DNA of 56,056 nt, counting the filler, from Jimgerdemannia flammicorona (lineage: Eukaryota), in assembly GCA_003990765.1 (NCBI GenBank). It is 3 parts of 3 records of this genome, joined end to end, with 100 filler letters (N's around TTAATTAATTAA, not from the genome) between each part and the next. Parts side by side here need not be neighbours in the genome. Positions count along the whole stretch, not along the records: positions 1 to 18,620 come from RBNJ01002158.1; 2 more parts are not named here. The stretch is one strand, 5' to 3'. Below, piece after piece: positions 1-47,794 of the stretch (within the stretch, counting starts at the first letter, position 1; the number at the start of each line of letters is the position of its first letter). The notes under the pieces were generated by a model. That model worked only from the letters and a program-made list of their open reading frames with translations. It had not been told where the DNA came from and ran no database searches. The translations under genes were made by a program, and so were the position numbers.

Positions 1-2
1 AT

Positions 3-2382: not shown

Positions 2383-2894
2383 GCCAAAGGATTGATCAGC
2401 GCCTCCAGACATTGGTCCTCAGCTCCTTCCAAGCCCTACCTGTTCCTCTACCCCAATTCGGCCAAGCCAATGGAAGCCCCCTTCAAAGGATCCAAGCTCA
2501 TCAAGAAAACCTCACCTTGGCCAGATGCCTACTACAAGTCCACCAACTGCAGGCCTATTATGCAATCAGTGAACAATTGCAGAACCTCCCAGCCCCAGAA
2601 CAGACCTACATCCGAAACACTACAGGTCTGACCAGAAGAGACACTACTGCCGCAGACAGACTATACACCATTTATAAACGAAATGTCACTGCCCTGACAC
2701 AGGTACAATTCTCCCTGAATGATATTCAAGGAATGAACCCTGTTACTTATCTGAGCATCATCAACTCTGTCGAAATCCTATTCCCTGAAGAAGAAGAAGA
2801 GCCCTTAGAATGGAGTAACTCCAGCACAGACAATGAAGATGATGGAACAGATATAGATGCAGAAGCAGCCTATGCTTATTGGGATGATGACTGA
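2379..2894 (+). CDS. Accessory ORF3 of family A (171 aa, unknown function, acidic C-terminal tail)
   Basis: ATG at 2379 overlaps the integrase TGA (ATGA). The ORF is intact and ends just before the PPT. The tail reads EEEEEPLEWSNSSTDNEDDGTDIDAEAAYAYWDDD. Confidence 0.75.
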   Translation: MSQRIDQRLQTLVLSSFQALPVPLPQFGQANGSPLQRIQAHQENLTLARCLLQVHQLQAYYAISEQLQNLPAPEQTYIRNTTGLTRRDTTAADRLYTIYKRNVTALTQVQFSLNDIQGMNPVTYLSIINSVEILFPEEEEEPLEWSNSSTDNEDDGTDIDAEAAYAYWDDD

Positions 2895-2921
2895 AGAATA
2901 GTCTGAGACAGACTACCCTTC

Positions 2922-2933
2922 AGTGGGGGCTGA
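2922..2933 (+). other. Polypurine tract of family A
   Basis: AGTGGGGGCTGA lies immediately before the LTR start TGTGACA. Confidence 0.65.
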
Positions 2934-4325
2934 TGTGACAAGCCAAGACATACCACCTGAATCATATCTTAACCAGATGATACGAACAAGATGACATGAA
3001 CACTCAGCTTAGTAACCAGCAACTCTTGTTGCAGAAAACTGTATAAATAGCCAGACATACCAGAAAGGGTCTGTTTACCTGTACAGACTCTGTACACCGT
3101 ACAGACTCTGTACACTGTACAGGTCCTGTACACCGTACAGACTCTGTACACCTGCCATAAGTAGCAATCTATAGTTAGCCACATAGTAACCAGATAGCAA
3201 CCAACTTGTATAAATTACCCCAGAGGCGAGAGTGAATAAAACCTCAGTCCGAAATACAAACACCAAAGAAGTCTCTAAAGATTGAGCATTGGTCCCCTTT
3301 CCATTCCAGTCCACTTTCCGATACAAAGAAGAGTCTGATACATTTTTGGTTCGCTTGCCAGATAAGCCTGAAGAATTCGAGTTTGCCACCTAAGTTCAAG
3401 GAAGAACTTTGCCGCCTTTGAAGAGAAATCCTTGGTTTGCTTGCCAGATAAGCCTGAAGATTTCTGCCTTTTCCGCCACCTAAAGGAAAGCCGCCTTGCT
3501 CAAGCCAGTTTCTGACACAACTTCGCAGTGATTTGTCGCACAAACGAAGCCAGTCTTTGAAGTAACTTTGCCAAGAGACCCTTTCCCAAAAGAACGCCGC
3601 CAGTTTTATCTGCCATATTTCCAGTTAGAGCCGCCGATTCAGGAAGAATCTGCACCATTGTATTTCCAGAAGAGCCATCTGAGTTATTTTCCAGAAGCCC
3701 ACTGATTCAGGAGAATCCGCGCCATCCGTCGTTTTCGAGTTGTCTGTATTCCCAGAAAACCCATGCCATCTGAGTAGTATTCCCAGTTAAAGCCATCGAT
3801 TTAGGAAGAACCCGTGACAGCCGAGTTATTTGTCATTCCCAGTGAGCTTGCTATAGAAGAACCCGCCACCAGCATTATTCCCAGAAAGGAGAACCCGTGC
3901 CTTACATTCCCAGTGAGCCAAATCGAGTCGACCACCAGAAATCGCATACTTTTGGGGATCGTCGCGCTACACAAAGAAATCGCCTGCTACCCAAGAAGGA
4001 GAACCGCTAAATTACCAGACCATCACGCACAGAGATTGTCATGCAGAAATCAGAGATCATTACTCAAGAAGGAAACTGCTCACGCTACACAAATTGTACC
4101 ATTCCCAGTTGACCCAAGAAGGAAGTCCATTCACACACAAATCACCGCTACACCCAGAGAACTGTCCAAAAAAGGAAACTGCTTGCATAGTATCCAGATC
4201 TTGGCTATTATACCGCTAAACACCAAGAACATTTTGTTGCTTTTTGACAAAGTAACTGGGGGCTCAAGCTAAACTACATCAACCCCCAACCTTGTAATTT
4301 GCCTCCATTGAGCCGGCATGTTACA
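2934..4325 (+). repeat. 3' LTR of family A (~1.39 kb)
   Basis: Termini are TGTGACA...TGTTACA, with a TATA-like GTATAAATA at ~3041. It aligns with 37441-38673 and both copies end at the same base. Confidence 0.9.
3080..3151. repeat. 4 x 18-bp palindromic tandem repeat (TGTACAGA-C-TCTGTACA-C) inside the LTR
   Basis: Units read directly at 3080, 3098, 3116 and 3134. Confidence 0.95.
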
Positions 4326-4879
4326 ATATATAGAACTAGTTAGTACTCTCAAATGAATCAAATTAATTTAAATCAAAGTGAATTGGAGTTAATTTGAATT
4401 AAATCAAATTGAAGATTTTTGTATTTAAATTAAATTTAAATTAAATTGAATTTAAATCAAATTGAGGTCTGATTTGATTTGATTCAAATCAAATTGAGGG
4501 TCCAATTTGAATTAGTTAAATCAAATTGAATATCAATTTGAGATTCTCAGTAACTTACTAATTATATTAGTTCTTTATTTAAAAGATATATTATATATAA
4601 ATACATAACTAAAATTCACATATAACTAAAATTCACACCTAACTGAAATTTACACATAACTGATATATATTTTCGAAATTCTCACTCTTAGTCCTGGTCT
4701 CAGATACACCTGGCTATAGCAGTAGCTGTCCAGTGAGTATTATTATATAATCTCTTATTCAGCAGAAGATCAGGAATCAATAGATTGAGTTGTTGACAGA
4801 TTTTGATAAGAGTATAATATGGTTTTCTATATCTTCTGCAATTATTCCAGCTTATATGAGATTGATCTTTAGTTTTTAG

Positions 4880-5446
4880 AGATATGACAGTAGTAGCTTA
4901 GGCTTAAGTAGTGGCTTGAACTTAGATGGTGGCTTGGGCTTAGGTGGTAGCTTGGGCTAAAGTGGTGGCTTAGGCTTAGGCAGTGGCTTAGACTTGGGTA
5001 GTGGCTTGGGCTTAGGTAGCAGCTTGGGCTTGGGTGGCAGCTTGGGTAGTAGCTTGAGTAGTAGCTTGAGTGATAGTAGTAGCTTGGGCTTAGGTGGTAG
5101 CAGCTTGGGCTAGAGTAGCAACTTGGACTTGGGCAGTAGCTTGGGCTTGAGTAGTGACTTAGACAATAGTGGCAGCAGTTTCAGGAGTCTCAGAAGTGAA
5201 GACTTCAGAGACCTCAGGAGTGAAAGCTTCAGGGACAGCCTAAAGGATGGCTTCAGGAGTTATCCTTAAGATGAATTGCTTAATTACTTCTTTAATCTTC
5301 TTCTTCTTCTTTTTATATTCATCATCAGTCTTAGATTCCTCATTATCCAACCAGATGACAATCTTGTTAATAGTATAGTTTATATTCTCAAAGGCTCCAG
5401 AAAGATGATCAATATAGAATTGAAGTTTTTTATAAGATGAGATCAT
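4880..5446 (-). pseudogene. Degenerate non-transposase ORF: Hsp70-lid-like helical segment followed by a Q/A/T-rich repeat
   Basis: It translates as INKIVIWLDNEESKTDDEYKKKKKKIKEVIKQFI, then continues in frame through stop codons as QAQATAQVQ...QATTQA, encoded by repeated CAAGCC units. Confidence 0.4.
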
Positions 5447-6035
5447 TTTTTGTTTTTTGTTTTATTTTTTATTATTAAAGCCAGCTTATTTATATATATT
5501 TTACCTATGCAATATTTAAAGCTCTTGGTTTACACTTATTACTTGTGAGATTGCAGGCTTGTACTTATTGTAATATTCAAAGCTCTTGGCTTACACTTGT
5601 TGCAATATTCAAAGCTCTCAGCTTATGCTTATTGCTTACAGGCTTGCAGGCTTGCAGGCTGGTGAGCTTGCAAGTATAAGCATTTTAGATATAGTAACTA
5701 AGTATATATGTATAATATATATCCTTAAGCTTTGAATATATTCAAAATTCTATATATTATGTCATTCATACTACTTATCATCCATCTCTAGTACTTCTAG
5801 ATAGACATAATGATATCTTGCTTATCTCATTAAAGCTAAAAATGATAGAAATTGTATTCAAATATAATAATCAGATATATATTAAGAAATTATATTCAGA
5901 TATAGTATATCTATAAGTTCTGGATCATACTTATATAATATGATACCTGAGTGCTATATTTATTTAGTATTTCAAAATTTAACTATATTTTGAAAATTGG
6001 GATTGACTATTGTTATTAGAATACTAGACTGATTA

Positions 6036-8600
6036 CTATACCTTTAAATATATATATTTATAAATTGTTTCAGAGTCTAAAGTACCTCTTTTAACCACTA
6101 TAAGATTTTTACTACTTGAAAAAACTCTCTCAATTAGAGTACTTATTACTGAGATAGCTAAGTAGTTATATGACATTTTTGCTAGATTTAAAAAATCTCT
6201 GCTATAGCCCTAATATTCTCAATTAATTAAATCAATTAGAGAAACTCAAATAATATTTTGAATTGACCTTATTTGAATATAAATTCCCAACTCACTTGTC
6301 ACCAAGATAATATATCAACTCCTACTTGAAATTTAACAGTTTTACTTTTTAAATAAGTATCTACCTCCTGCTTAGGATTTATCATCAGTTTTTGTCTTTT
6401 GTTAAATATATGTTTATATGTATAGTACAGTATTGACATCATCTCCTACTTCATGATCTTCAGAACTTATTCAATTAATTGATCTAGATAGAGGAGTATC
6501 GTTTTTATTATAAATTATATGAAGTTTGTCTTTGACCTCTTCAATCTAAATGTCTTTCCAATTATGTAATAAATAATATTCTAGCTTAAGTCTGGAATTG
6601 AGTACTGATTTTTATTAAAAAATAAAATAAAATAAAATAAAATTTAAAATATATTAGTAGTGGCCAACAAGTGAATTTTGAAATAGATTTATACTATTTC
6701 TGATACCAAGTGAATTTTTAAATAGATTTATATTATCTCTGATATCAAAATATTTACTTATCAGTACCAATATAATAAATTAGTTGAATAATATATCTTC
6801 AACTTGGTAATAGCTATGGTTAGTACCAGGTGAATAATATTTATCTCTTCTGTATATTTTCAAATTTCTTGATTGTTATTCTCCAACATATCCATTAGAA
6901 AGTTGTAAATAGGAACAGCAGAATAAATTATTAGATATTTATACTGAGCTGCAAGATCTATTGCTTGTTTAAAGCACTTTAGTATATCAATAATGTCTTT
7001 TAGTATCTGCCAAGTATAGTCTTCTATAGCATATTTTTGCAAATATTTATTAGCTATAACTATTGAGGTTAATAGCTATTAATAAATTAATTTATTAGAT
7101 TATTTGAAGAAAAAACTGAAAAATAAAAAAATTAAATATAATATAATTAGCTTATCTCTGATAATTCTAAGGCCCATTCAACCATCAAATATATTGAATT
7201 CTATCAAGTTTTTAATGTCCAAAATAAGTTCTTTTAGATTGCAAACTCCAAAAGCTTTATATTATATAGTAAATCTCTCTTGATATTATAGTAATAACTA
7301 GATCTTGATAATAATTAATTGGAGCTTTGAAATTATTTCTCTAGAACCATCTTTACTTATATTATTATCAGCTTTTAAATAGACTAAAAAGTTCTGAACA
7401 GCCAAATTAATGATATGAGCCAGGTAGCATATATATTATATTGACTAATAGTTGAGGCCAGTATGATTGAACTCTGTCTTGATTGTTTGAAAAAATGTGG
7501 TGTTGTTAGATATATTGTCTATTATTATAGCTAATACCTAGAGTGAAAAATCAATAATTTAAATGTAAGATGACTTTTTTTTTTTTTTGAAAACCCAATC
7601 TTTTTGAAAATCTGACCTTTTTTGAAAACTCAACCTTTTTTGAAAACCTGATCTTTTTCAAAAATCCAACCTTTTTCAAAAACCCAACCTTTTTTGAAAA
7701 CCTGACCACTGATCTTTTTTGAAAACCCAACTTTTTTCAAAAACCCAACCACTGACTTTTTTCAAAAACCTGATCTTTTTAAAATATGATCTTTTTAAAA
7801 AGCTTGTTCTCTATATACCTTTGTCTATATACCAAAATCTCAAACACAGTTTACAAAGGCACTAGTAAGATTTTCACCCAAATGAGATTCTGATAACTTG
7901 ACAAAATCAATCAACATATAGTTGAGTTATCAATTTTGACAAATCTAATATATATTAATTACAAGAAATATGTATATATTGAGTAATATCTATGTATTAA
8001 TAGTGAAGGATATTTGACCAGATACATTCTATTTCCAAATAAATAAATTGAAATAAGGTTAATTTAAAGCCATTCAACTTTGAAATATTCAAATTCATAT
8101 TCAACATTAAAATATTAAATTTTACCTATAGTATAATTTTGATGGTATTATATTTTTATTGAAAGGCTCACTTCATATAGTTTCAGTAGAAGGAATAGTA
8201 ATGTCTGGTTTCAGAAGGCAAAAAAGATCTTTTAGCTCTAAATTCTCAACAACTGTAAAAGGCTAGCTATTATAGATAATCCAGCAAATAAGTTTGTCTT
8301 GAAATAACTTTATAGAGAATCTTGACTATTTAGAGAATAATCAAGTAGTAATGAATTAATAATAAGAAAAGAAAAAAAAGCTAACAAATTATATAAAAAC
8401 CATACTTTTGAAATAAATAACTCTATTGCTCCTGTTTGATAACTCTTATGAAATTTGTTAAAATATGTCTACAAATTTGTTATTGAGCCACCAATAGTCT
8501 TATATAATATCTTACAGTAGTTATATTTGATTTGGATATCTCTATTTTCCTTATGCTTCTTTGTGAACTCCTTCTAAATATCAGATTATTCTTGTACTTT
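6036..8600 (-). pseudogene. hAT transposase pseudogene with introns
   Basis: Relic motifs: ISFTINT* (first catalytic region, ~8000), DNISNN (~7510), LAHIINLAVQ (~7410), VLNSRLK (LDPR-type, ~6590), and the dimerisation domain NLAKMSYNYLAISVISTLIERVFS (~6120-6190). Confidence 0.85.
7585..7800. repeat. ~17-bp tandem array (TTTTTGAAAACCCAACC / TTTTTCAAAAACCCAACC) within a transposase intron
   Basis: About a dozen degenerate units lie between transposase exon relics. Confidence 0.8.
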
Positions 8601-8747
8601 TTCTATTTCTTTCTTAGATGAGATTATACTTGTTGAAGCTAGACTTATTAAAGCTATATCTGATACTGAGGCTGTTGTCATAGTATTCTCTATAGAGGAT
8701 GTAAAAGGTATATCTGATATGATTACTTTAGGAGAGAGTGTGTATAT

Positions 8748-10299
8748 TGTAATAGTGATCCCAGAATAATGACATTAGTACAAGAGACAGTCTTTCCTTA
8801 TAAGCCACCAGATTGGAATACAAGAAGATCATACAACATATAAGATGAGAAATTATGACCCACTGTGAGTCATTGTGATCACAGTATAGGCATCTTGAGG
8901 AATATAAAAGAAGGATCAAGGAACTGCAGTAGCAGCAACTCAATAAGACCCATCAATCTCAAAATAGCTCAAAGACTTATCATAAATGAAATGTCTGCTG
9001 CTCACTAAACCTCAATGTCAAGGAACTACCAAGGCACCTCAGTTGAGGAAAGGATATTCCAAGACATCAGAAGAGCCATGAGGACATATACAAGAAGAAC
9101 TCCTAGTATTAATCTGGGCACTGGTGACCCTTATCACTATATCCTCTACTGCTGTAAAATAGAAACAAGGATTACCATTGCTACCAAATACCTCAAAATG
9201 TGGCAGGAGTATGAAATAGGAAACCTCCTCTACTAGGAGTTTCTACAGACTAGCTCTCAAGAGTTACAAGATGCCACTTCCATAAATATATATAAAACAA
9301 GGATAGCTAAGAAGATCTATCAGATCTTTAGGTATATACTATGATTGATCTCCAATTTGGAGTATGTTAGAGTCTCAGACTTCAGAGACCTGTCAGTCTA
9401 CCATATCAATGCACTAAAAGCCAGAGTAGCTACAGAAGTCCAGTCCACTATCACCCTCAATAGTGATGAAGTAGAAGACTTCTGATATCCCATCCTTCAG
9501 GACAACTCAGACCAATTTCTGTAAAGATTGATCTCAGTATTTCAAGGCCCAAGTATCCAGGTTAGACATCTCCAAGACCCCACATTTGTCCCCTATTTCA
9601 TGGAAGAGAACCTCATAGACTAGAGAGCTCCAGACCTTCTTATTCCTACTGCTGCTAAATGTGATGACATCATTGGTAATGATATTATCTCACATGACAT
9701 ATACAAAGTATGTGAAATGTGTGACCTATATAATGATGAAAAGATGGACAAAACATTCATAGACCTCATCTTCTTTGAAGATATTCTGACCTCTAATGAG
9801 AACGAAGTTCCTATGGTCTTGAACATTCTGCTCTAAGTCTCTTGGTAATACTGAATTATACCAGCACTAGTATTCTGATGTGATACTGAATTATTCCAGC
9901 ACTATTTTCCTATACTACTGAAATTATACCAGCATCCTAAACCTGTAAAATCATCAGTACTGATACTGAAACTTAGCAGTTTTCCATGTCCTGGCATTTT
10001 ATTTTAGTTATTGGAATTTATATTTAGCTTTATATCTTAGCAACCATTGAATTACATTTTTTATAAATACTTCTCTTATTTCCTCTGAAATAAAGTCAGT
10101 TCTGGTTCACTTATACACAATCTCTTACAAGCAATCTAAGAGATAACAAGATAGTTTAAAGATAAGAAGTTTGAGGACTATAAGATCTTAGGAAGGTACT
10201 CCAATAAGAACTTGCTTATAACAAACTTGAGTTAGTCTAAGAGATATACCTTGAAGAGAATCTGATGTATTTGAAGGACTCAGTGACTACTACATGACA
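8748..10299 (+). repeat. 5' LTR of family B (~1.55 kb)
   Basis: Starts TGTAATAGTG and ends ...CATGACA. It matches both LTRs of the minus-strand copy. Confidence 0.9.
8991..9836 (+). pseudogene. LTR-encoded ORF of family B (~280 codons)
   Basis: A single frame runs from ATG 8991/9015 to TAA 9836 with no frameshift. The internal stops are single transitions from CAA/CAG/TGG, and those checked read Gln or Trp in another LTR copy. Confidence 0.75.
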
Positions 10300-10315
10300 A
10301 CTTAATGCCCATTGA
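10300..10315 (+). other. Degenerate primer-binding site
   Basis: ACTTAATGCCCATTG here and ACTTAGTGCCCATTG in the other copy directly follow the LTR end. Both fit an eroded TGG(C/T)GCCCA. Confidence 0.6.
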
Positions 10316-10355
10316 CTGGTGATTCAAGACAAATCCCTCACTTTTAAGCTGAAAA

Positions 10356-13300
10356 ATGAACAACCACCACAACAACTACTCTGACTACAAGAGTCACCCC
10401 TACAAGAATTCAAGATAAGATAGAAATATATCCCCCCACATTCTATAGATATACTACTGAAGAGTCAATCCTGACCTTCATTAAAAACTTTGAACAATTC
10501 ACCACCATATGAGCTCTTGGTATAGATGCACAATTGGCTCTTCTACCTATCAGCCTCAGAGGACCTGCCAGAGACAAGTTCAATACAGCTACTATTGCAG
10601 ATAATGGTGCAGCCAAACTTACCAATATGAAGGCCTTCCTCAGAACAACATACTATACTGAAGAGATCAAACAAGCTCTCAAGGATCAACTCAATACTAT
10701 CTGCCAGAGACTCAGCAAAGATCCCAACTCATTCTATATTTGAATCTACTACCAGATTATCTTGGCTGACTATGATGATGCCCTTAAGAAACAAATAGTA
10801 GATTCAACTCCTCAAAGGAGTTTACCCTGAAATTGCTCTAGCAATTCAGTCTACTCTAGCTGCACTGACTCTTGATCAGAAAGTGGTCTTTGCATAGAGA
10901 TATTGGACTGTCAGATACCCTGCCAAATACTCAATAGAGAAAATAACTGGCATCAAGATAGAGTCATCAAAGCTAACTAGTATTATACCTACTACAGTTG
11001 TAAACAGACAACCATCCCCACCTACCCCCAAGATAGCCAAAGCTGACCCAGTGGAGGAACTCACCAAGTAGTTTGCCAAGATAACTGCATACCTTGGTGA
11101 TGTTATTAGAGAAGTCTGAAGTGACAACAGGAGACCAGTATAGAGATTTGCAGCTACTATAGAAGAATACAATATTATATACTTCAGATATGAAGAAGAA
11201 GGCCACTATGCAAAGAGTTGTATGACTGAAATAAGACACAAAGCCCAACCAAGCAATGCTAGCAGAACTAGAGAACAAACCAATGCAGTAGTTATTGAGA
11301 AGATTGGTGATACTGATAATAAAGAATACTATGAGGAGCTCAAATTCTACCCTACTACTGAAAGTACTAGAATCTGGTCCAAGCCTTATAACAAGAAGAG
11401 CAACAGCAAGCCAGTTGGAAGACCAAAGAAGACCCCAGCTATCACTATTCAAAGTAAGATCCAATCAAAGGAGATTAATCAAGACATAGAGTTAGATGAA
11501 GCTATCTACTAAATCATTGAAGACACTACTCCAGTCTTAGGAGAAAGTAAAAGTAAGAAGAAACAGAAGCTATGCAAGACCAAGATCCACTAGTATGATA
11601 TCTACAAGGACTTTAAGGAATAGAAGGTCAATGCTACTTTTGAACAACTAGCCAAAGTCCCTGCTTTCAGACAGCAGTTGAGAGTAGGACTTGTAACTAC
11701 TACCAAGAATCAAGAGTACAAGATTGTAGAAGCTCACAATGCATAAGAAGATGATCGAGAAAACTCAGGTGAAGAATCTGAAGATCAGTACAAGATATCA
11801 GCCTATACCCCATATCAGATTGAAGATTGTATCTTTAATGCTATTATTGATACTAGTGCTAGAGGATGCCTCATGAGCAAGAAGGCAATTGACCACCTAG
11901 GCTGGGACATTGAAGAGTCCACCAAGATGGTCTATGTTACAGCAGATGGTATATGAGCTACCCCCCTTGGCAAAATCTGAGAAGTCCCCATCAAGATAGG
12001 AGGAGCTACCATCTCAGTAGATGTGATCATTATAAGTATTACTAACTATAACATCCTCATTGGCAACCAATGGCTTCACAAGGTCAAGACCATCATTAAC
12101 CTCAATGCCCAGAAGATGCAGATCAACTATAGAGGAAGAAAGGTATAAGTCTCTATTAATGTCTACAAAGGAGTTCTACCAGACATGGAGAAAGGAGATG
12201 AGGAGGATACAGAAGTCTTCATGCACTTAGTGAACAAGAACAAGAACAAGACACCCAAGCTCACAGATGAGCAGTGGTACATACAACAAGATCATTGATA
12301 GCTATGCTCCTCAAGAAAGATGCCCCCATGGTACTAGGATGTACTGCTCTGAACACCTGAATGACTGCTGGTCCTATATCAGTGAAGTCAGGAAAATCTG
12401 CCAAAAGAAGTATGAGCAAGAAGCTGCTGAAGCAAAAAGGAAAGCCAAAGAAGATGACCAGCCCCCAGAGCTTTAAGCTGACAAGGAGAAACAAGAACCA
12501 GATATTACCCTCAAGATCAAGAAGTTCTACCCTGAAGCCAAGATCCCAGAATATAAGACTGAAGGAGCCATAGGAATGAACCTTGCTAGCATTTAAGATG
12601 CTACCCTCAAACCACAGACCACTACCCTACTTGGTACTGGAATTGGAATCAAGTTACCAGAGAACTATGCCAGAATTATCAAGACCAGGAACAGTCTGAC
12701 CAAAAGCAAAATCTCAGTTGAAGGAGGAGTAATTGATCCTGATTATACTGGTAAGATCTTCTCATAGTCAGGAATCACAACTCCACCACTCCATTTGAAG
12801 TCAAGAAGCATGATAGGATTGGCCAGATGTTGATCCACAAAATCAAGAAGTCCAAGATCACTGAAGTCATTGAACTCATCAAGACTAAGAGAGGAGAACA
12901 AGGCTTTGAATCTACTGGAAGAGGAGTCTATGCTGCTATCAAGATCACCAAACTTGAGTACAAGAAAGACAGGGACCAGAATAAGCACACATATACTATT
13001 GGAGAAAACTTTCCCCTGGAAGAACAACTTCTTAAGATCCTGTATCAGAATGAAGAAGTACTGGCTACAGACTTCAGAGATATCTACAATCAAGAACCCA
13101 AGTACTATCATGAAGTTAACACTGATGATACCAAGCTCATCTACCAGAAAGCCAGACCTATACCACCTGCCTACAGAGAATAGCTGCAAGTAGAACTCAA
13201 GAAAATGGAAGAAACTAGAATCATCAAGCAAGCTATCAGTTCCTGGGCTTCACCTATTGTCCTTACTCTGAAGAAAGAAAATAAGTCTGGAGAGTTTGTA

Positions 13301-14440
13301 CCAAGACTCTGCATTGACTATAGGAAGTTCAATACAGTTACCAAGAAGGATAGGCAGCCCTTGCCAAATATTCAAGAAATCCTTACCACCCTTAGAAGTA
13401 AAGCCAAATATTATACTATCTTGGATCTGTTCTCAGACTTCCATCAGATTGGTCTCACTCAAGATACCAGTGAGAAATCAGTCTTCATTACATCTGATGT
13501 CATCTATATCTACCTGTGAATGCCATTTGGAATGTACAATACACCAGCAAGTTTTTAGTGAATGATGAACAGAGTCTTCAGCAACAAGATTGGAAAATGG
13601 CTCTTTGTCTATATTGATAATATGATCATCTTCAGCAATACTGCATGAGAACATATCAACCATATACAGCTAGCCCTCAAGAAGCTCAAGAAGTATGACC
13701 TCTACATCAAGCCCAAGAAATACAAGTTTGTAGCTCAGGAAATCACCTACCTAGGACACCTCATCAACCAGACTAGAATCCATACAGACTCTATGAAGAT
13801 TGAGGCTGTTGCAGCCTACCCAAGATCCAGAACAACCACAGAAGTCCATGCCTTCCTTGGACTGGCCAGCTACTATAGAAGATTCATCAAAGGATACTCC
13901 AACATTACAGCACCTATCTACAAGCTACTGAAGAAGGAACCCAAATTCAAATAGACCAAGAAATGCCAAAAAACCTTCAATAAACTCAAGACCAGATTGA
14001 CCCAAGCACCTATTCTCAGAAGACCAGATTGGAACCTAGAATTCATCCTGCAGACAGATACAAGTACTATAGGACTTGGAGCAGTACTAGCTTAGAAGAA
14101 AGATAGACATGAATATGTCATCTCCTATGTAAGCTGAGGTACCCATAGAGTAGAACAGAACTACAAGTCATGCAAGCTCAAATGCTTAGCAGTAGTTTGG
14201 GCAGTAGACAAGTTCCACTACTACCTAGCTGAGAAATACTTCACTATTCAAACAGATCATTCCACTCTTACCTGGCTATTCCATACTCTGAACTCCAAAG
14301 AAATATATACCAGATGGATCTACAGGCTATAAGAGTATGACTATACCATCAAGCACTACTCAGGAAGAACCAACACCAATGCTGATACACTCTTAAGAAT
14401 ATCTCAAAACACCTCCATCAAGACTATTCAACATGAATAA
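10356..14440 (+). pseudogene. gag-pol: gag-protease-dUTPase-RT-RNaseH of family B, many nonsense changes
   Basis: CCHC knuckle relic (FRYEEEGHYAKSC, ~11180-11220), protease AIIDTSA (~11840), RT SSWASPIVL / RLCIDYRK / YIDN (~13610), and RNase H LQTDTS, TDHSTL, NADTL. Confidence 0.92.
12501..12922 (+). pseudogene. dut: dUTPase domain within gypsy pol
   Basis: All five trimeric dUTPase motifs are present in order: GAIGMNL, TRNSL, GGVIDPDYTG, DRIGQ, RGEQGFESTG. There is one stop and one frameshift (~12760). Confidence 0.93.
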
Positions 14441-15376
14441 GAAGTTATACTATGGATTAATCAGCTATCTTGAGCAGCAGAAGATGCCCAACTACCTCGA
14501 ACCCTGGACAATTACCATCATTAACCAGACTTAGAAACAGTTTGAACTAGACAATACTATCCTCAGAAAAGGAAGAAAGCTAGTAATACCCAAATATAAG
14601 AAATATCAAGTAATAAAGGAAGTACATGAGCAAGGATATCTAGGAGGAACCAATATATATGACAAGGCAAGAAGAACTATATGGTGGCCCAAGATGGAAG
14701 AAGACCTGTACCAATTTGTCAAAGAGTGTAACAAGTACCAAAAACAGAAATAAGATCAGTAAGACCAGGTATCTGGGTTATCAAGAATTGAGCCTATCCC
14801 CTTCCACCACATTGCAATGAATATTATTGGGCCACTACTAGTAATAATATCAGGAAACTACTATATTATAGTTATTGTAGACCTCTTTACTAAATGAATA
14901 GAAGCAGGAGCATTACAAGAAGCCAATGCCCTCTCTATAGCTAACTTCTTGTATCAAGAAATTATCTGCCACTACAAGACACCAAGACAAATCACCACAG
15001 AAGAATTTGTCAATGGATTTTATGAGTTAATATATCAGAAATATAAAATTCAGTACATCAAGACCACCATATACCACCCTCAAGGAAATGGACAGACAGA
15101 AAGAACTAATAAGATCCTCAAGAACATCTTGATGAAAATCTCAGAGATATATGAGAATTGGAATAACTATCTCTCAACTGCTCTCTCTATTCAATGAGAT
15201 ATACAGTCACAGAGCACACACTTTACCCCAAGAGAACTACTCTTTAGAGAAGAAGATTCTAATAGAACCTCAGCCACAAATCTAGACCTAACTTGGAGAC
15301 AAGTTGATACAGAAATCTGGAGACTACACCAAATCAGAAAGAAGGCTGAAGATTATATCATTAAGTCACAAGTGCT
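14433..15376 (+). pseudogene. int: Integrase of family B in a separate frame (truncated)
   Basis: ATG 14433 begins MNKKLYYGLISYLEQ. Downstream motifs include VHEQGYLG, WWPKM, VKECNK, IIGPL and YHPQGNGQTERTN. Confidence 0.88.
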
Positions 15377-15489
15377 ACTCATTAATATCTTTAGTTAATA
15401 TTATATCTACTATTCAAGGCCTTTTATTATGATTTCTTCTTATCTTTACAATATTAACAATATATTGCTTTCTCTTTAATAGTAGTATA

Positions 15490-16410
<921 letters not shown>

Positions 16411-16434
16411 TAGTTGATAGTTGATGGTTGACTA

Positions 16435-17540
16435 TAGTGCTCTGAATAAGCTAATCTGAATCAATTTAAAGTGGCTTAGAGAGTACTCTGAATGAGCTAA
16501 TCTGGATCAGATTCAAATTCCATCTAGATCAACTTAGATGAGATTCAAATCTCATCAGATTGATTCAAATCAATCATTGTTTTCATTTCCAAATTAGACA
16601 ATTAAATATTTATATTAATAATTCAATAAATAATCATTCAATTTTGATAAATCTTGGTATTATTTAAAAGCTCTTAATAAGATTTTTCTAATTATACCAA
16701 GAATATTGAAATTGGATTATATATTGCTGAGTTATCATGGAAAATATCTGACTTACCAATTTTGGAAATTATTCAACTTAATGATTTTGGAAATTTTTTC
16801 AAAAGAATATTTTCCTTAATAGCTTAGTAATATGTAATCCAATTTGAATATTCTTAATAGTCTTATTAAGGGCTTTTAAAATCATTAAAATTGGATAATT
16901 GTTTATTGAGTATTTAATATAAATATTTAATTATCTAATTTGGAAATCAAAATAATGATAATCTAGATGAAATTCAAATCTCATCCAAGTTGATTCAGAT
17001 GGGATTCAATCCAAATTCAATCTAAATCCATCTGAATTAAATTGACTCATTCAGAGCACTACTTATAGATAGTATAATTTGAAGAGAATTTGACATATTA
17101 ATATTATTATTTTGATTTACAAATTAGATAATTAAATGTTTATATCAATAACTTGATGAAAAATCATTTAATTTTGATAATCATAATATTATTCAAAGTC
17201 TTTAAAGAGACTTTCTAATAATATCAAAAATATTGAAATTAGATAATATATCATCAAGTTATTAATATTTCCAAAATTGATAAGTTAGATGTTTTTCTTA
17301 ATAATTCAGCGATATATCATCTGATTTCAATATTCTTGGTAATTAGAAAGATCTTAATAAGGACTTTGAATAATACTATGATTATTAAAATTAAATAATA
17401 TTTCATCAAGTTATTAATATAAATATTTAATTATCTAATTTGAGAATCAAAATAATGATATTAATATATCAAATTCTCTTTAAATTATATTATCTATAAG
17501 CCACATTGAATCAATCTGAATCAGTTCATTCAGAGCACTA
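16435..17540. mobile_element. Non-autonomous foldback hAT element (MITE), outer copy
   Basis: Perfect 13-bp TIR TAGTGCTCTGAAT/ATTCAGAGCACTA, with a perfect 8-bp TSD GTTGACTA at 16427-16434 and 17541-17548. Confidence 0.95.
16481..17061. mobile_element. Related foldback hAT MITE nested inside the outer copy
   Basis: Ends are GAGTACTCTGAATGAG / CTCATTCAGAGCACTA. The degenerate TSD is CTTAGA(GA) / CTTATAGA. The internal arms resemble those of the outer element. Confidence 0.85.
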
Positions 17541-23376: not shown

Positions 23377-23425
<49 letters not shown>

Positions 23426-39098: not shown

Positions 39099-40610
39099 TA
39101 TTATATAGTCACTAAGTCCTTCAAATATATCAGATTCTCTCCAAGGTATATCTCTTAGACTAACTACAAGTTTGTTATAAGCAAGTTCTTATTATAGTAC
39201 CTTTTTAAGATCTTATAGTCCTCAAACTTCTTATCTTTAAACTATCTTGTTACATATCTCTTAGATTGCTTGCATAGAATTAAAAATAAGTGAACTGGAA
39301 CTAACTTTATTTCAAAGGAAATAAGAGGGGTATTTATACAAAATATAATTCAATAGTTGCTAAGTTATAAAGCTAAATATAAATTCCAATAACTAAATAA
39401 AATACTGGAATATAGAAAAATATAGTTGTAAGTATAAGTTCAAGTGTCTGTACAAATAGTTACATAAGTTCAGAATACTAGTAGAATTTCAGTAGTATAG
39501 AAAAAGGATACCAGAAGAATTTCTGAGTTACCAAGAACTTAAAGCAGAATGTTTAGGACTATAGAGACTTCATCTTTATCACTATCATCAAGGCCAGAGG
39601 TCAGAGACAGGATGTTTTCAAAGGAGATGAGGTCTGTGAATATTTCATCCATTTTGTATATTTTACATGCTTCATACATGTCATATAAGATAATATTATT
39701 GCTGATAACATCATCATATTCAGCAGTAGAGACTCTCCAATCTATGAGGTTCTCTTTTACAAAATAAGAGACAAATGTGGAGTCTTGGAGAGATCTAACC
39801 TGGATGCTGGGGCCTTAGAATGCTGAGATTAATTCTTGTAAGAATTGATCAGAATTGTCCTTGGGAATAGGATTCCAGAACTCTCCTACCTCATCACTAT
39901 TGAGAGTGATAGTAGACTGGGCTTCTGTAACTACTATGGCCTCTAGTGCATTAGTATGACAGGCTGACAGTTCCTTGAAGTCTGAGATCCTAGTGTACTC
40001 TAAGTTGGGGATTAATCATAATACATACCTGAAGACCTGATGAATCTTCTTAGCTATTCTTATTTCATATACATCTATAGAGGTGGTATCTTATATTTCT
40101 TGGTGACTGGTCTGAGAGAATTCTTGATAGAGGAGGTTTCTTATTTCATACTCCTGCCACATTCAGAGATATTCAGTAGTAATAGTAATTCTTATTTCTA
40201 TTTTGCAGCAGTAGAGAATATAATGATAAGAGTCACTGGTACCCAGGTTAAGGCTAGGAGTTCTTCTTATATAAGTCCTCATAGCTCTTCTGATATCTTA
40301 GAACATCCTTTCAGTCTTGGTGGTTCCTGGATCTTGAGGTTTGGCAAGTGACAGGTATTTGTTTGTGGTAAGTCTTTAGAACTATTTCTGTGAGCTTTGT
40401 TTAGATTGCTGCTACTGCAGTTTCTTAATCCTTCTTTTATATTTCTCAAGATATCTGTCTTATAGTCATAATGACTCACAGTTAGTCATCCTTACTCATC
40501 TTATAGCCTGGATGAGTTATGCTATATGATCTTCTTATGCTTCAATCTGGTGGCTTGCAAGAAAAGGCTGTCTTCTGTACTGATGTCATCAATCTGAGAT
40601 CACTATTATA
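39099..40610 (-). repeat. 3' LTR of family B (contains an ORF relic at 39539-40358)
   Basis: Direct repeat of 46273-47794, preceded by the PPT. Confidence 0.92.
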
Positions 40611-40966
40611 TCTTCCTCCTGAATAAGAATCTTCTCTTGAATGTCCTTATTCATTGGTCTAGTCTGAAAAATTTTCTGATCCTATAACCTCTGGCAGAGG
40701 GTTGAAAAGTAGTATTTATGGGCTGGCATCTTCTCTATATATTTTGGCATGATAGTGAAGAGTCACTCCCTTCATATAGAGCAAGGGCCTGATTCTGATC
40801 TTGATTAATCAGTTGATAATTTGAACTCCTCTGGTTTCAAAAGTCTCACAAATAAGTAGTTGCTAGTGCTGTATCTCTTAGAGAATAGTCTAGACAGATT
40901 GTCTACTGATTATGGAATATGCTATTATGATTCATGGATTAGAACCTCATGGGTGATTATTATGTT

Positions 40967-42172
40967 TTACTTCTTTTGTATAGATCCATGGTACTTTTTG
41001 AGTCTGTTTCTATGTACCATAGTAGGCAGTATGGTTCTTGAGAGTTTTCTAAGCCAGAAGATAGTTTTCTTGATATCTTGTACATAGAAGAGTTCTTCCC
41101 ATTTGGGCTCCAGTTTTTATGACTATGAGGCTTCTACTATATTTTGATACAGTAGGACCTTTTCTCTGATTTGGATGAGTTCTAGGGTCTTGTGATTCTT
41201 TTCTACATTCTTCCTTATCAGTGCTTGTGACTTAATGATATAATCTTCAGCCTTCTTCCTGATTTGATGTAGTCTTCAGATTTCTGAGTTAACCTATCTT
41301 CAAGTTAGGTCTAGATTTGTAGCTGAGGTTCCATCAGAATCTTCTTCTCTGAAGAGCAGTTCTCTTAGAGTAAAGTGTATACTCTGTAATCATATATCTT
41401 ATAGAACAGAGAGAGTAGTTGGAAGATAGTTATTCTAATTGTTATATGTGTCTGAGATCTTTACCAGGATATTCTTGAGAGTCTTGTTGGTTCTTTCTGT
41501 CTGTCTATTTTCTTGAGGGTGGTATATGGTAGTCTTGATGTGCTGAATCTTATATTTCTGATACATTATCTTATGGAATCTATTGACAAATTCTGTGCCA
41601 TAGTTTGTAGTGATTTGCCTTGGTGTCTTGTAGTGGCAGATGATTTCTTAGTGCAGAAAGTTAGCTATAAAGAGAGTATTGACTTCTTGTAATACTCCTA
41701 CTACTATCTATTTAGTAAAGAGGTCTACAATAACTATAATATAACAGTTTCCTGATAGTATCACTGATAGTAGTCTAATGATATCTATTGCAATGTGATA
41801 GAAGGGGATAGGCTCAATTCTTTATGACCTGGGTATTTGGTCTTGCTGATCTTATTTCTGTTTTTGGTACTTATTACACCCTTTGACAAATTGGTGCAGA
41901 TCTTCTTCTATCTTAGACCACTATATAGTTTTTCTTACTTTGTTATATATATTGGTTCCTTCTAGATATCCTTGTTTATGTACTTCCTTCATTACTTGAT
42001 ACTTCTTATATTTGGATATTATAAGCTTTCCTCCTTTTCTGAGTATAGTGTTGTCTAGTTCAAATTATTTCTAAGTCTGGTTGATAATAGTGATAGTCTA
42101 GAGTTTGAGGTAGTTGAGCATCTTTTGCTGTTCAAGATAGCTGATTAATTTATAGTATAGCTTCTTATTTAT
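40967..42172 (-). pseudogene. int: Integrase of family B (complete, eroded)
   Basis: ITTNYGTEFVN, YHPQENRQTERTN, LEPKWEELFYV (GPY/F relic) and VHRNRLKKY. Confidence 0.88.
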
Positions 42173-45100
42173 ATTAAATAGTCTTGATGGGAGTGTTTTG
42201 GGGTATCCTTGAGAGTATATTAGCATTGACATTAGTTCTTTCTAAGTAGTGCTTGATAGTACAGTCATACTCTTACAGTCTATAGATCTATCTGGCATAT
42301 ATTTCTTTAGGGTTCAGAGTGTAGAATAGTCAGGCAAGAGCAGAATGATCTGTTTGAATAGTGAAGTATTTCTTAGCTAGGTAGTAGTAGAACTTATCTA
42401 CTGCCCAAACTACTGCTAAGTATTCAAACTTGCATAACTCATAGTTCTGTTCTGCTCTATAAGTACCTCAGCTTATATAGGAGATAATATATTCATATTC
42501 ATCTTTCTTCTGAGCTAGGACTGCTTCAAGTCCTATAGCACTTGCATCTGTCTGCAGGATAAACTCTAGATTCCAATCTGGTCTTCTGAAGATGGGTGCT
42601 TAGATCAATCTGGTCTTGAGTTCATTGAAGGTTTCTTAACATTTCTTAGTCTATTCAAATTTAGTCTCCTTCTTCAGTAGCTTGTAGATAGGTGCTATAA
42701 TGTTAGAGTATCCTTTGATAAATCTTCTGTAGTAAGAGGCCAGTTTAAGGAAGACATGGACTTCTGTAGTTGTTCTGGATCTTGGATAGATAGCAACAGT
42801 CTCAATATTTATAGAGTCTATATGAATTCTAGTCTGGTTGATGATATGTCCTAGGTAGGTAATTTTCTGAGCTATAAACTTACACTTCTTAAACTTGATA
42901 TAAAGGCCATACTCCTTGAGCTTCTTGAGAGCTAGTTGTATATGGTTAATATGTTCTCATATAGTATTGCTGAAGATGATCACATAATTAATATAGACAA
43001 AGAGCTATTTTTCAATCTCATTGCTGAAGACTCTATTTATTATTTACTGAAAACTTGCTGAAGCATTACACATTTCAAATGGTATTTGCAGATAGACATA
43101 GGTAGTATCAGGTGTGATAAAGACTGATTTCTCACTAGTATCTTGAGTGAGACCAATCTGATGAAAGCCTGAGAATAGTTCCAAGGTAGTGCAGTATTTG
43201 GCAAGGGCTGTCTATTCTTCTTGGTGATTGTATTAAGCTTTTTATAATTAATACAGAGTCTTGGGGCAAACTCTCCAGACTTACTTTCTTTCTTTGGAGT
43301 GAGGATAATAGGTAAAGCCCAGGGGCTAATAGCTTACTTGATAATTCCAGCTTCTTCTATTTTCTTGAGTTCTACTTACAGCTATTCTCTATAGACAGGT
43401 GGTATAGGTCTGGCTTTCTGATAGATAGGCTTGATATTGCTAGTGTCAACTTCATAGTAGTACTTGGATTCTTGATTATAGATATCTCTGAAGTTTGTGG
43501 CAAGTACTCCTTCATTCTGGTACAGGATCTTGAGAAGTTGTTCTTCTAGGGGAAAGTTTTCTCCAATAGTATATATGTGCTTATTCTAATTCTTGTCTTT
43601 CTTGTGCTCAAGTTTGGTAATCTTGATAGTAGCATAGACTTCTCTTCCAGTAGATCTAAAGTCTTGTTCTCCTCTCTTGATCTTGATGAGTTCAATAGCT
43701 TCAGTGATCTTAGGCTTCTTGACTTCATGGATCAGCATCTGGCCAATTCTGTCATACTTCTTGACTTCAAATGGAGTGGTGGGGTTGTAATTTCTAATTA
43801 TGAGAAAGATTTTACCAGTATAATCAGAGTCAATTACTCCTTCTTCAACTGAGATTTCACTTTTGGCCAAACTACTCTTGGTTTTGATAATTCTGATATA
43901 GTTCTCTAGCAACTTGACTCTAATTTCAATACCAAGTAGAGTAGTAGTCTGTGGTTTGAGGATAGTATCTTGAATACTAGTAAGGTCTATTCCTATGGCT
44001 CCTTCAGTCTTATATTCTGGAATCTTGGCTTCTGGATGAAACTTCTTGACCTTGAGAGTGATATCTAGTTCTTGTTTCTCCTCATCATCACTGTCAGCTT
44101 GAAGCTCTGGAGACTGGTCATCTTTTTTGGCTTTCCTTTTTGCTTCAGCAGCTTCTTGCTTATACTTTTATTGGTAGATTTTTCTGACTTTACTAATACA
44201 GGACCAGCAGTCATTCAGGTGTTCAGAGCAGTACATTCTGGTATCATGAGAGTATCTTTCTTAAGAGGCATAGCTATTGATGATCTTATTATACCACTGC
44301 TCATTTGTGAGCTTAGATGTCTTGCTCTTATTCTTATATATCAAGTGCATGAAGACTTCTGTATCTTCTTCATATTCTTCCTCTATGTCTGGTAGTACTT
44401 CTTTGTAGATATTGATAGAGACTCATACCTTTCTTTCTCTATAGTTAATCTGTATTTTCTGAGCATTGAGATCAATGACAGTCTTAGCCTTGTGAAGTCA
44501 TTGGTTGCCAATAAGGATGTCATAGTTGGGCATTTATAACAATCATGTCTACTGGGATAGTAGCTCCTCTTATCTTGATGAGTACTTCTTGGATCTTGTC
44601 TGGGGGGGGGGTAGCTTATATACTATTTGCTGTAATATAGATTATCTTAGTGGACTCTTCAATATCCTAGCCTAGGTGGTCAATTGTCTTCTTGTTTATA
44701 AGATATTCTCCAGCACTGATATCAATGATGGTATCAAAGATACAATCTTCAATCTAATATAGAGTATAGGCTGATGTCTTATACTGGTCTTCAGATTCTT
44801 TATCTGAGTCTTTGGATTCTTCTTCTATATTGTGAGCTTCTACAATCTTGTACTCTTAGTTCTTGACAGTGGTTGCAAGTTCTACTCCCAACTGCTGTCT
44901 GAAGGCAGAGATTTCAGCTAGTTGTCTAAAAGTAGCATTGACCTTCTGTTCCTTAAGATCCTTGTAGATATCATACTAGTGGATCTTAATCTTGTGTAGC
45001 TTCTGTTCTTTCTTACTTTCACTTTCTCCTGAGACTGGAGTAGTACCTTTAATGATTTGGCAGGTAGCTTCATCTACATAACTCCATATCTTGATCAATC

Positions 45101-46217
45101 TCCTTGAGTTGGTCTTGCTTTGAATAGTGATAGCTAGAGTCTTCTTTGGTCTTCCAACTGGTTTACTGTTGCTCTTCTTATCATAGAGCTTGGACCAGAT
45201 TCTGGTACCTTTAGTAATAGGGTAGAATTTGGGCTCCTTATAGTATTCTTCATCATCAGTGTCACCAATCTCCTTGATGACTACTGCATTGATTTATTCT
45301 CTAATTCTGATAGCATTACTTGGTTAGGCTTTGCATCTTGTTTCAGTCATACAACTCTTTGCATAGTGGTCTTCTTCTCTACATCTGAAGTATGTGATAT
45401 TGTATTCTTCTATAATAACTGTAAATCTCTGTACTGGTCTCCTATTGGTGCTTTGGACTTCTCTAACAATATCACTAAGATGTGCAGTTATCTCAGCAAA
45501 CTACTTGGTGAGTTTCTCCACTGGGTCAGCTTTGGTTGTCTTGGAGATAGGTGGGAATGATTATCTGTTTATAACTGTGACAGATATGATACTGGTTGGC
45601 TTTGAAGGCTCTATCTTGATACCAGTTATTTTCTCCATTGAGTGTTTGGTAGGGTATCTGACAGTCTAATATCTCTATATAAAGACCACTTTCTGGTCAA
45701 GAGTCAGAGTAGCTGGAATAGACTGGATTGCTAGGGCAATTTCAGAGTGAATATTTTTGAGAAAGGTTGAATTAGCTATTTATTCCTTAAGGGCATCATT
45801 ATAGCCAGCCAAGACAATCTGATGGCAGATTTAGATGTAGAATAAGTTGGAATCTTCACTGAGTCTCTGGCAGATAGTATTGAGTTGATCTTTGAGAGCT
45901 TGCTTGATCTCTTCAGTATAGTATATAGTTCTGAGGAAGTTCTTTATATTGGCAAGTTTGGCTGTATCAGTATTAGTAATAGTAGCTATATTGAACTTAT
46001 CTCTGATAGATCCTCTGAGGCTAACTGGTAAAGAGCCAATTGTGCATCTATAGGAAGAGCTCATACAGTGGCAAATTGTTCAAAGTCTTCTATGAAGATC
46101 AGGATTGACTCTTTAGTAGTATATCTATAGAATATAGGAGAATGTATTTCTATCTTATCTTGAATTCTTATAGGGGTAACTCTTATAGTCAGAGTAGTTG
46201 TTATAGTAGTTATTCAT
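42165..46217 (-). pseudogene. gag-pol: gag-protease-dUTPase-RT-RNaseH of family B
   Basis: Colinear with 10356-14440. The knuckle reads YFRCREEDHYAKSC. Confidence 0.92.
43643..44065 (-). pseudogene. dut: dUTPase domain, second copy
   Basis: GAIGIDL, TKSSLA, EGVIDSDYTG, DRIGQ and RGEQDFRSTG. Confidence 0.93.
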
Positions 46218-46272
46218 TTTTCAGCTTAAAGTGAGGGATTTATCTTGAATCACCAGCCAATGGGCACTAAGT

Positions 46273-47794
46273 TGTCATATAGTAGTTGCTGAGTCCTTCA
46301 AATATATCAGATTATCTTCAAGATGTATCTCTTAGACTAACTACAAGTTTGTTATAAGCAAGTTCTTATTGGAGTGCCTTCCCAAGATCTTATAGTCCTC
46401 AAACTTCTTATTTTTAAACTATCTTATTATCTCTTAGATTGCTTATATAGAATTGAGAGTAAGTGAACTAGAATTGACTTTATTTTAAAAGAAATAAGAA
46501 GGGTATTTATACAAAATATAATTCAATAGTTGCTAAGTTATAAAGCTAAATATAAATTCCAATAACTAAATAAAATACTAGAATACAGAAAACTACAGTT
46601 ATAAGTACAAGTTCAAGTATCTGTACAAATAGTTGTATAAGTTCAGGATGCCAGTAGAATTTCAGTGGTATAGGAAAAGAATACCAGAAGAATTTTTGAG
46701 TTATCAAGAACTTAAAGCAGAATGTTCAGAACTATGGAGGCTTCATCTTCATCACTATCATCAAGACCAGAGATTAGAGACAGAATTTCTTCAAATGAGG
46801 TAAGATCTACAAATATTTCATCTATTTTGTATATTTTGCTTGCTTTGTACATATTATGCAGGATGATGTCATTGCCAATAACATCATCACATTCAGTGAT
46901 AGGGGCTTTTCAATCCATGAAGTTCTCTTCTACAAAATAAGAGACAAATGTGGGGTCTTGGGGAGATCTAACCTGGATGCTGAGGCCTTGGAATGCTGAG
47001 ATCAATTCTTATAGGAATTGATCAGAATTGTTCTTGAGGATAGGTTTCCAGAACTCTTCTATTTTATCACTATTGAGAGTAATAGTAGACTGGGCTTCTA
47101 TGACTATTATGGTCTCTAGTATATTGGCATAGTGGACTAATAGTTCCTTGAAGTCTGAGATTCTAGTATACTCCAAGTTGGGAATTGACCACAGTATATG
47201 CCTGAAGACCTGATGAATCTTCTTGACTATCTTTATTTCACATATATCTATAGAGGTGGTATCATGTATTTCTTAGTGACTGGCCTGAGGGAATTCCAAG
47301 TAGAGGAGGTTTCCTATTTCATACTTCTGCTATATTCAGAGGTATTCAGTAGTAATAGTGATCTTTATTTCTATTTCATAGTAATAGAGGATATAATGAT
47401 AAGGATCACTGATATCCAGGTTAAGGCTAGGAGTTCTTCTTGTATGGATTCTTATAGCTCTTCTGATGTCTTAAAACATCCTTTCCTAGACTGAGGGGCC
47501 TTGGTGGTTCCTGGATCTTAAGGTTTGGTAAGCAGCAGATATTTGTTTATAGTAAGTCTTTAGAACTATTTCTGTGAGCTTTATTTAGATTGTTGCTACT
47601 GCAGTTTTTTGATTCTTCTTTTATATTTCTCAAGATATCTATCTTGTGGTCATGATGACTCATAGTTAGTCATTCTTACTTATCTTATAGTCTGGGTGAG
47701 TTATGCTATATGATCTTCTTATACTCTGATCTAGTGGCTTACAAGGAAAGGCTGTCTCCTATGCTGATATCATCATTCTGAGGTCACTATTATA
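46273..47794 (-). repeat. 5' LTR of family B (contains an ORF relic at 46712-47542)
   Basis: Ends ...TGACA and is followed by the PBS. Direct repeat of 39099-40610. Confidence 0.92.

Follow-up and report, generated by a model that had tools for sequence, protein, structure and literature searches.

A conserved open reading frame inside the long terminal repeat of a decayed Ty3/gypsy retrotransposon family of Jimgerdemannia flammicorona

We analyzed a stretch of 56,056 nt from Jimgerdemannia flammicorona (assembly GCA_003990765.1; hereafter "the window"), which consists of three records joined with filler (positions 1-18,620 represent RBNJ01002158.1) and in which one Ty3/gypsy retrotransposon family, here termed family B, is represented by two old copies. 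The long terminal repeats (LTRs) of this family very probably contain a real, conserved gene. Overall, the data are probably best explained by an LTR-resident accessory gene of a Ty3/gypsy element that is now dead in the window. The proposal of an initial annotation that a protein-coding open reading frame (ORF) is embedded in the LTR is supported by the LTR structure of the two elements, by uninterrupted homologues and by in-frame indels. As the ORF lies wholly within the LTR, there are two copies of the gene in a complete element and one in a solo LTR; the further proposal that every insertion, including a solo LTR, deposits one copy follows from the same position.

Self-BLAST and a three-way MAFFT alignment identified one LTR in three copies (L1, L2 and L3; see Table 1) with lengths of 1547, 1509 and 1517 nt, respectively. 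Translation and alignment confirmed that all three copies carry the same reading frame, ending in ...VLNILL*, as had been noted initially; the frame is on the sense strand of the element in each copy, starts approx. 240 nt from the 5' end of the LTR and would correspond to an intact gene of approx. 275 codons. The intervals initially given as LTRs (8991-9836, 46712-47542 and 39539-40358) hold as limits of the ORF but not as limits of the LTRs, which are approx. 1.5 kb long. Likewise, the frame length was found to be a multiple of three in two copies, as described (846 nt in L1 and 831 nt in L3), and not in L2 (820 nt), because of an 11-nt deletion. Within the ORF limits, 6, 5 and 7 internal stops were observed (L1, L2 and L3, respectively), whereas the five remaining frames have 11-30 each. 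Such low counts are beyond chance, being reached by 5, 1 and 2 of 2000 trials with mononucleotide shuffles. Across the whole LTR, the stop counts of the sense frames were 21 versus 35/50 (L1), 23 versus 42/49 (L2) and 25 versus 43/50 (L3).

The internal stops of L1 are located at 9006, 9234, 9342, 9483, 9522 and 9621, i.e., the three stops listed in the initial annotation (9234, 9342 and 9483) are present but do not represent the full count. The readings attributed to other copies held in part: TAG 9234 corresponds to CAA in L2 but to TTG in L3, TGA 9342 corresponds to TGG in L3 but to TGA in L2, and TGA 9483 reads TGG in both. The acidic C-terminus GLDDSD(K/E)DE(V/A)S occurs in L2 and L3 but not in L1, where 21 nt are missing. 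All three window copies are pseudogenes, and their inactivation is almost entirely due to C>T and G>A transitions (Q and W codons to stops, ATG to ATA), plus the 11-nt deletion in L2.

Uninterrupted homologues of this frame, spanning 138-342 aa, were found in public metagenome protein sets. A word-seeded search yielded three proteins at E <= 0.01 among 249 word-sharing candidates (P0005, 247 aa; P0006, 271 aa; P0007, 215 aa), with 61-67% identity to the window copy in which stops were read as X. P0006 has the same Met start as the window ORF and is 61% identical over 100% of the query; tblastn with P0006 covers positions 8991-9833 of the window (61% identity, E 5e-105). A profile search of 1.84 billion representatives recovered 6 proteins at E <= 0.001, including P0010 (214 aa) and P0011 (342 aa), which are 44% and 40% identical to P0006, respectively, are both stop-free and open with the same MP(A/P). 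The profile search suggested in the initial annotation thus yielded natural, uninterrupted homologues. Moreover, the residues opposite the 18 internal stops of the three window copies are without exception Q, W or R in the intact homologues closest to them, each stop therefore being one transition away from a sense codon.

The distribution of indels between the two element lineages differs between the ORF and the remainder of the LTR. Inside the ORF, the indels are 18, 18 and 21 nt long (3/3 multiples of three), whereas those outside the ORF are 14, 4, 1, 1, 34, 11, 1 and 1 nt long (0/8 multiples of three). This pattern indicates that the frame would have been under coding constraint while the element was active. 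The sole copy-specific indel inside the ORF is the frame-breaking 11-nt deletion in L2, as would be expected for decay after insertion.

Contigs from soil and rhizosphere metagenomes provided a further comparison, as 1211, 291, 38 and 6 pieces from four runs were placed on the LTR at a likeness of at least 80%. Relative to the window, most differences in these contigs are T>C and A>G changes, and it is therefore the window copy that has mutated. With C at position 9006 and G at 9344, the contigs have CAA and TGG in place of two of the L1 stops; at the start codon, ..AAAATGCC.. is seen in one loose end. Contig loose ends also repeat two junctions of the element, i.e., from the polypurine tract into the LTR at 8754 and from the LTR into the leader at 10283. 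Positions 9636-9999 have little contig cover, which was not counted as absence. In the window itself, all three LTRs are devoid of CpG (window-wide CpG observed/expected, 0.61), and the data point to heavy cytosine-deamination-type mutation of repeats; a CpA-specific signature of repeat-induced point mutation was not shown in the LTRs, where C>T changes before A, T and C numbered 50, 34 and 25, respectively. Owing to this type of mutation, the divergence of the two element 2 LTRs (85.6% identity) is unusable as a simple clock.

The gene product is an orphan soluble protein that is predicted to consist of a helical core of approx. 150 residues and an acidic tail. An AlphaFold model based on 7 sequences was unusable (predicted local distance difference test score [pLDDT], 33.8); the model based on 12 sequences (pLDDT 57.2; predicted template-modelling score, 0.54) shows a helical core at approximately residues 15-160, with block-mean pLDDT of 50-90 (mostly >=67), and a disordered tail. 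In 5 of the 6 family members tested, the net charge of the C-terminal tail is -12 to -19, the sixth (P0010; -1) ending before the tail. The tail evolves fast, by in-frame indels, around the short conserved hydrophobic motifs DLISF and LNFLL. No membrane segment was detected in the members tested (highest 19-residue hydropathy, 0.55-1.05), and Pfam found no env family in the intact members or the window copies; as it has no membrane segment, the protein is neither an Env nor Sag-like.

Searches for a family or fold, as suggested in the initial annotation, did not return a Pfam, PDB-sequence or fold match. Pfam reported no family at E <= 1 for the intact members or for the window copies (S6PP and HHH_RecD2 matches were below the cut-off), a sequence profile search of PDB returned only a methyltransferase at E 0.41, and the ESM Atlas contained no usable neighbour (best feature score, 0.83; template-modelling score, <=0.33). 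Matches to the 12-sequence model were not significant with Foldseek against PDB (best E 0.73) or in BFVD (best E 0.11), and the highest Z in a VIA-align comparison with 48,161 chains was 4.3 (none >=5). Helices of the Sin3 complex were considered as a fold match and rejected, as their Z of 3.1-3.8 is within noise; no fold is claimed.

LTR retrotransposons capture host sequence, and the protein is without a retroelement-type domain, as would be the case if the ORF were a host gene fragment that was transduced into the ancestral LTR and carried along as a passive passenger without benefit to the element. We nevertheless regard this origin as very unlikely. No longer, fused or host-type relative was found among 2424 candidates of 476-2000 aa (which represents weak evidence), and the exhaustive profile search yielded no more than 6 short proteins, all of this type. 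In addition, P0006, P0010 and P0011 have retained their own Met start, and the in-frame indels between element lineages argue for constraint.

The placement of the accessory gene within a genuine LTR is supported by the structure of the two family B elements, i.e., element 1 (+) and element 2 (-), of which the latter is complete. The sequence 5' of the element 1 LTR is unrelated, and the sequence 3' of it runs into an internal region common to both elements. Similarity ends at approx. 15372, with simple repeats thereafter, and the 3' end and 3' LTR of element 1 are therefore missing. Just past this truncated end, diverged tandem repeats with a long A-run (poly-K in one frame) were observed at 15500-16310. 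The LTR termini are TG..CA (TGTAATAGTG...CTACTACA in L1), with the start mutated to TA (TATAAT..) in L2 and L3, and a polypurine tract, AGGAGGAAGA, directly adjoins the element 2 3' LTR. The flanks of element 2, ..AGTAT before the LTR and ATAGTAT.. after it, represent a possible 5-bp target-site duplication that is 2 nt out of register. A primer-binding site was not recognized after the 5' LTR upon inspection by eye, without tRNA comparison.

Table 1. Positions of family B LTRs, internal regions, LTR-borne frames and motifs, and of ORF3 of family A, in the window
Feature	Position	Strand	Remarks
Element 1 5' LTR (L1)	8748..10294	+	Aligns with both element 2 LTRs; starts TGTAATAGTG, ends CTACTACA
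Element 1 internal region	10295..15372	+	gag, protease (PR), dUTPase, reverse transcriptase (RT), RNase H, integrase (INT); decayed; 85% identity to element 2
Element 2 5' LTR (L3)	46278..47794	-	85.6% identical to its 3' LTR
Element 2 internal region	40611..46277	-	gag with zinc-knuckle remnant, PR, dUTPase 43586-44167, RT, RNase H, INT
Element 2 3' LTR (L2)	39102..40610	-	Self-BLAST, alignment, end reading
LTR-borne ORF, copy 1 (L1)	8991..9836	+	282 codons including stop; ATG kept; 6 internal stops; no frameshift
LTR-borne ORF, copy 2 (L2)	39539..40358	-	Start is ATA; 11-nt deletion near N-terminus shifts frame; 5 internal stops
LTR-borne ORF, copy 3 (L3)	46712..47542	-	Start is ATA; 7 internal stops; 831 nt
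TATAAA upstream of ORF	8903..8908	+	Approx. 85 nt before start; also 40441, 47625; candidate ORF promoter (putative)
TATAAA 10062 and AATAAA 10089	10062..10094	+	Also 39338/39311, 46511/46484; putative promoter and poly(A) signal
Family A ORF3 (P0014)	2379-2894	+	Intact, 171 aa; ATG overlaps pol stop (ATGA)

Pfam scans, which were run on translations with stops read as X, gave the order aspartyl protease, dUTPase, RVT_1, RT_RNaseH, Integrase_H2C2 and rve. In the element 1 frame, aspartyl protease is found at residues 538-641, RVT_1 at 1035-1186, RT_RNaseH at 1276-1379 and Integrase_H2C2 at 1463-1518; in element 2, RVT_1, RT_RNaseH, Integrase_H2C2 and rve follow in the same order. The pol domain order PR-RT-RNase H-INT thus identifies these elements as Ty3/gypsy (Metaviridae). 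A dUTPase domain (PF00692) is located between the protease and RVT_1 in both elements, i.e., at 43586-44167 (-; E 4e-22) and 12500-13183 (+). A chromodomain family was not reported in the Pfam scan of the pol regions of these two heavily decayed copies. Within the LTR, the ORF lies upstream of a conserved TATAAA/AATAAA pair, in which AATAAA follows 27 nt after TATAAA and which is located approx. 225 nt past the ORF stop and approx. 200 nt before the LTR end; the ORF would therefore belong to the putative U3.

The window also contains a second, better preserved gypsy family (family A) at 527-4327 (+), with open RNase H and integrase ORFs at 527-2382, followed by an intact ORF3 (see Table 1). 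This ORF3 is followed, after approx. 40 nt, by a polypurine stretch and an LTR at approximately 2934-4327 (TGTGACA...TGTTACA; approx. 1.4 kb, delimited by eye), and a diverged second copy of the LTR is present at 37571-38695. Pairs of 44-N runs at 18621-18720 and 37341-37440, the second near this LTR copy, represent filler between the joined records. Family A ORF3 has 7 homologues in metagenome protein sets. Like the LTR gene, it lies 3' of pol, has intact metagenome homologues and codes for a small orphan protein that is helical at the front and strongly acidic in its tail (net charge -17 in the last 50 residues); unlike the LTR gene, it lies upstream of its LTR, and its start overlaps the end of pol. 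Direct comparison of the two proteins gave E 0.05-1 with phmmer and BLASTP and a single-sequence hhalign probability of 3.5%, and comparison of their profiles gave a weak co-linear match of 47 columns (hhalign E 0.0034, probability only 9.5%). These values do not establish that the LTR gene and ORF3 of family A are homologous. If they were, the LTR gene would have begun as a normal post-pol ORF3 and become part of U3 through an upstream shift of the polypurine tract.

The position of family A ORF3, between pol and the LTR, and its weak profile match to the LTR gene could also be taken to mean that the family B frame is a real gene that is not LTR-resident in active elements, the repeat seen here being an enlarged duplication peculiar to old copies. 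This appears highly improbable, as two elements that are 15-22% apart have their LTR ends at the same places, with the ORF between them, the polypurine tract is located upstream of the ORF, and the same junction between polypurine tract and LTR recurs in soil contigs.

Of the differences of L1 from sites where L2 and L3 agree, 37, 22 and 61 fall on codon positions 1, 2 and 3 (P = 6e-5 as compared to a uniform distribution). The codon-position bias anticipated in the initial annotation is thus present, but it does not differ from the control within one element, i.e., L2 versus L3 (44/33/54; presumed neutral after insertion; contingency P = 0.25). Similarly, Nei-Gojobori dN/dS is below 1 between lineages, as anticipated (0.20-0.25), but it is 0.32 within the element; with ratios of transitions to transversions in the ORF of 104:16 between lineages and 125:6 between L2 and L3, the latter representing a transition bias of approx. 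95%, Nei-Gojobori dN/dS cannot show selection. Purifying selection is therefore not demonstrated by the window alone, and the case for a gene is made by the indel lengths and by the intact homologues. U3 regions hold conserved regulatory blocks, and the codon-position test was no better than its control, yet it is scarcely credible that there is no gene and that the frame is open through composition or through conserved cis-regulatory DNA in U3, given uninterrupted homologues of 214-342 aa at only 40-44% identity, stops that align with Q and W codons, six-frame stop counts that differ as in coding sequence, and indel lengths that fit a coding region.

Besides the codon-position and dN/dS results, several observations weigh against an LTR-resident accessory gene with a function for the element. 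As all three copies are broken, nothing in the window is functional now. The family is narrow, since only 6 clusters were found in 1.84 billion representatives, a basic cluster at the N-terminus is confined to close relatives and is not kept in distant members, and no family or fold match backs any function. The intact homologues are encoded on contigs of 900-2375 nt, and only the junctions seen in soil contigs suggest an LTR context for them. When metagenome contigs were scanned with the protein alignment, none of 272 pattern matches was confirmed, and a degenerate ORF pattern gave no matches. Scans of viral contigs gave 29 matches with the LTR-gene alignment (0 confirmed), 476 with the family A alignment (0 confirmed) and none with either of two DNA patterns. 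The initial annotation had proposed mapping U3, R and U5; these regions are assigned here by motif, and the conserved TATAAA and AATAAA would place the ORF in the putative U3. Finally, the 9 matching sequencing runs were all soil or rhizosphere metagenomes (word shares <=0.15) with no RNA run among them, and have no bearing on expression.

Two routes of expression can be envisaged for the LTR gene. The gene may be expressed from a transcript of its own of approx. 1.2 kb, made from each LTR, that would start at the upstream U3 TATA and end at the LTR poly(A) signal; between the upstream TATAAA and the ORF start, no ATG occurs in L2 and L3, and L1 has one, at 8986, which results from a 1-nt difference. 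Alternatively, the protein might be translated from element RNA in spliced or subgenomic form, with U3 located downstream of pol. The own-promoter route has a little less than an even chance of being correct.

The product would be an element-encoded accessory factor acting in trans, possibly as a regulator or adaptor that promotes expression of the element. Position and architecture suggest such a regulatory role, which we put forward tentatively and consider rather unlikely. More doubtful still is a scenario of a "complex" fungal retrotransposon in which the LTR would be a self-contained cassette, with a U3 promoter in the first 240 nt driving a trans-acting regulator with a helical core and an acidic, activation-type tail, the transcript ending at its own poly(A) signal, and the whole arising by a shift of the polypurine tract upstream of a post-pol ORF3 like that of family A. 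If this scenario were true, every LTR, including solo LTRs, would be an autonomous unit that boosts the elements of its family or, once decayed, interferes with them.

Other features of the window include AT-rich palindromic short repeats ("aaatcaaattga...") on both strands at 4325-4700, 16570-17540 and 52480-53020, which resemble miniature inverted-repeat transposable elements. Two adjoining open frames at 54190-55763 (-) resemble pieces of a hAT-type transposase, with a weak hAT-like RNase-H match (E 8e-4) below the cut-off. A GC-richer stretch at 19400-34100 carries ordinary host genes with short gaps between exons, including an aldo-keto reductase fragment at 20457-20849 (PDB matches at E 2e-23) and frames that resemble a membrane transporter; the flanking genes are compact and intron-poor.

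Accessory genes separate "complex" from simple retroviruses, and in LTR retrotransposons they are rare, little understood and mostly orphan. A conserved gene in U3 would be copied twice per insertion and left behind in solo LTRs, which would thus be possible gene carriers and not only promoters. Family B also lends itself, as a natural system, to studying the origin of U3-resident genes, e.g., sag and nef. Because LTRs are masked as non-coding by annotation pipelines, such families go unseen, and the gene callers used for metagenomes list their ORFs as unexplained "hypothetical proteins".

Genes that reside in or overlap U3 are known in retroviruses, i.e., sag of mouse mammary tumor virus (MMTV), nef of primate lentiviruses and bel2/bet of foamy viruses. 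As in these viruses, the family B frame would be in U3, and hence in both LTRs of an integrated element and 3' of pol in the genomic RNA. Unlike the retroviral U3 genes, the LTR gene has no sequence or fold relation, no Pfam family and no membrane segment; unlike in vertebrate retroviruses, the carrier is an env-less Ty3/gypsy retrotransposon and the ORF is entirely within the LTR. The likeness to MMTV Sag is positional only, the protein neither belonging to the Sag family nor carrying a type II anchor. In the literature searched (subscription papers and supplements excepted), no conserved coding gene within the LTR of an LTR retrotransposon was found, and papers on MMTV sag were the only relevant matches. 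The position of a gene in U3 is thus known from retroviruses, and a gene inside a retrotransposon LTR, not previously described within this literature, is moderately surprising.

Partial counterparts exist among the retrotransposons themselves. In plants, Retrosat2, RIRE3 and RIRE8 carry an extra ORF (ORF0) that follows the 5' LTR and precedes gag, outside the LTR itself (PMC3485330). In the parts of that report available to us, these extra ORFs are, like the LTR gene, conserved, without an assigned function, present on Ty3/gypsy elements with long LTRs and more divergent than pol; unlike Retrosat2 ORF0, the gene described here lies in the LTR and does not adjoin it. The accessible portion of a review of plant elements contains no wording for an ORF inside an LTR (PMC7264820). 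Among fungi, Gypsy elements that bear a dUTPase include PosPlaTy3-5 of Postia placenta and others in Phanerochaete (both basidiomycetes) and Tuber (PMC2864245). This architecture, the compact, intron-poor flanking genes and the occurrence in soil and rhizosphere metagenomes all agree with a fungal host. Like family B, these elements have the dUTPase between PR and RT in a Ty3/gypsy pol; unlike in family B, the excerpts of that paper at hand describe no LTR-internal gene, and a figure legend mentions an "additional ORF with unknown function". Another counterpart is CERV of Cer1, a Ty3/gypsy element of C. elegans, which is reported, in the portion of the source consulted, as an orphan, lineage-restricted accessory protein encoded 3' of pol (PMC10309623). 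Unlike CERV, the LTR gene is located inside the LTR, and the comparison is one of description that claims no sequence similarity. As described there, CERV is like the product of the LTR gene in being an accessory protein of a Ty3/gypsy element without a recognizable family, and it offers a plausible model for how such a protein might act in trans on the expression of element RNA.

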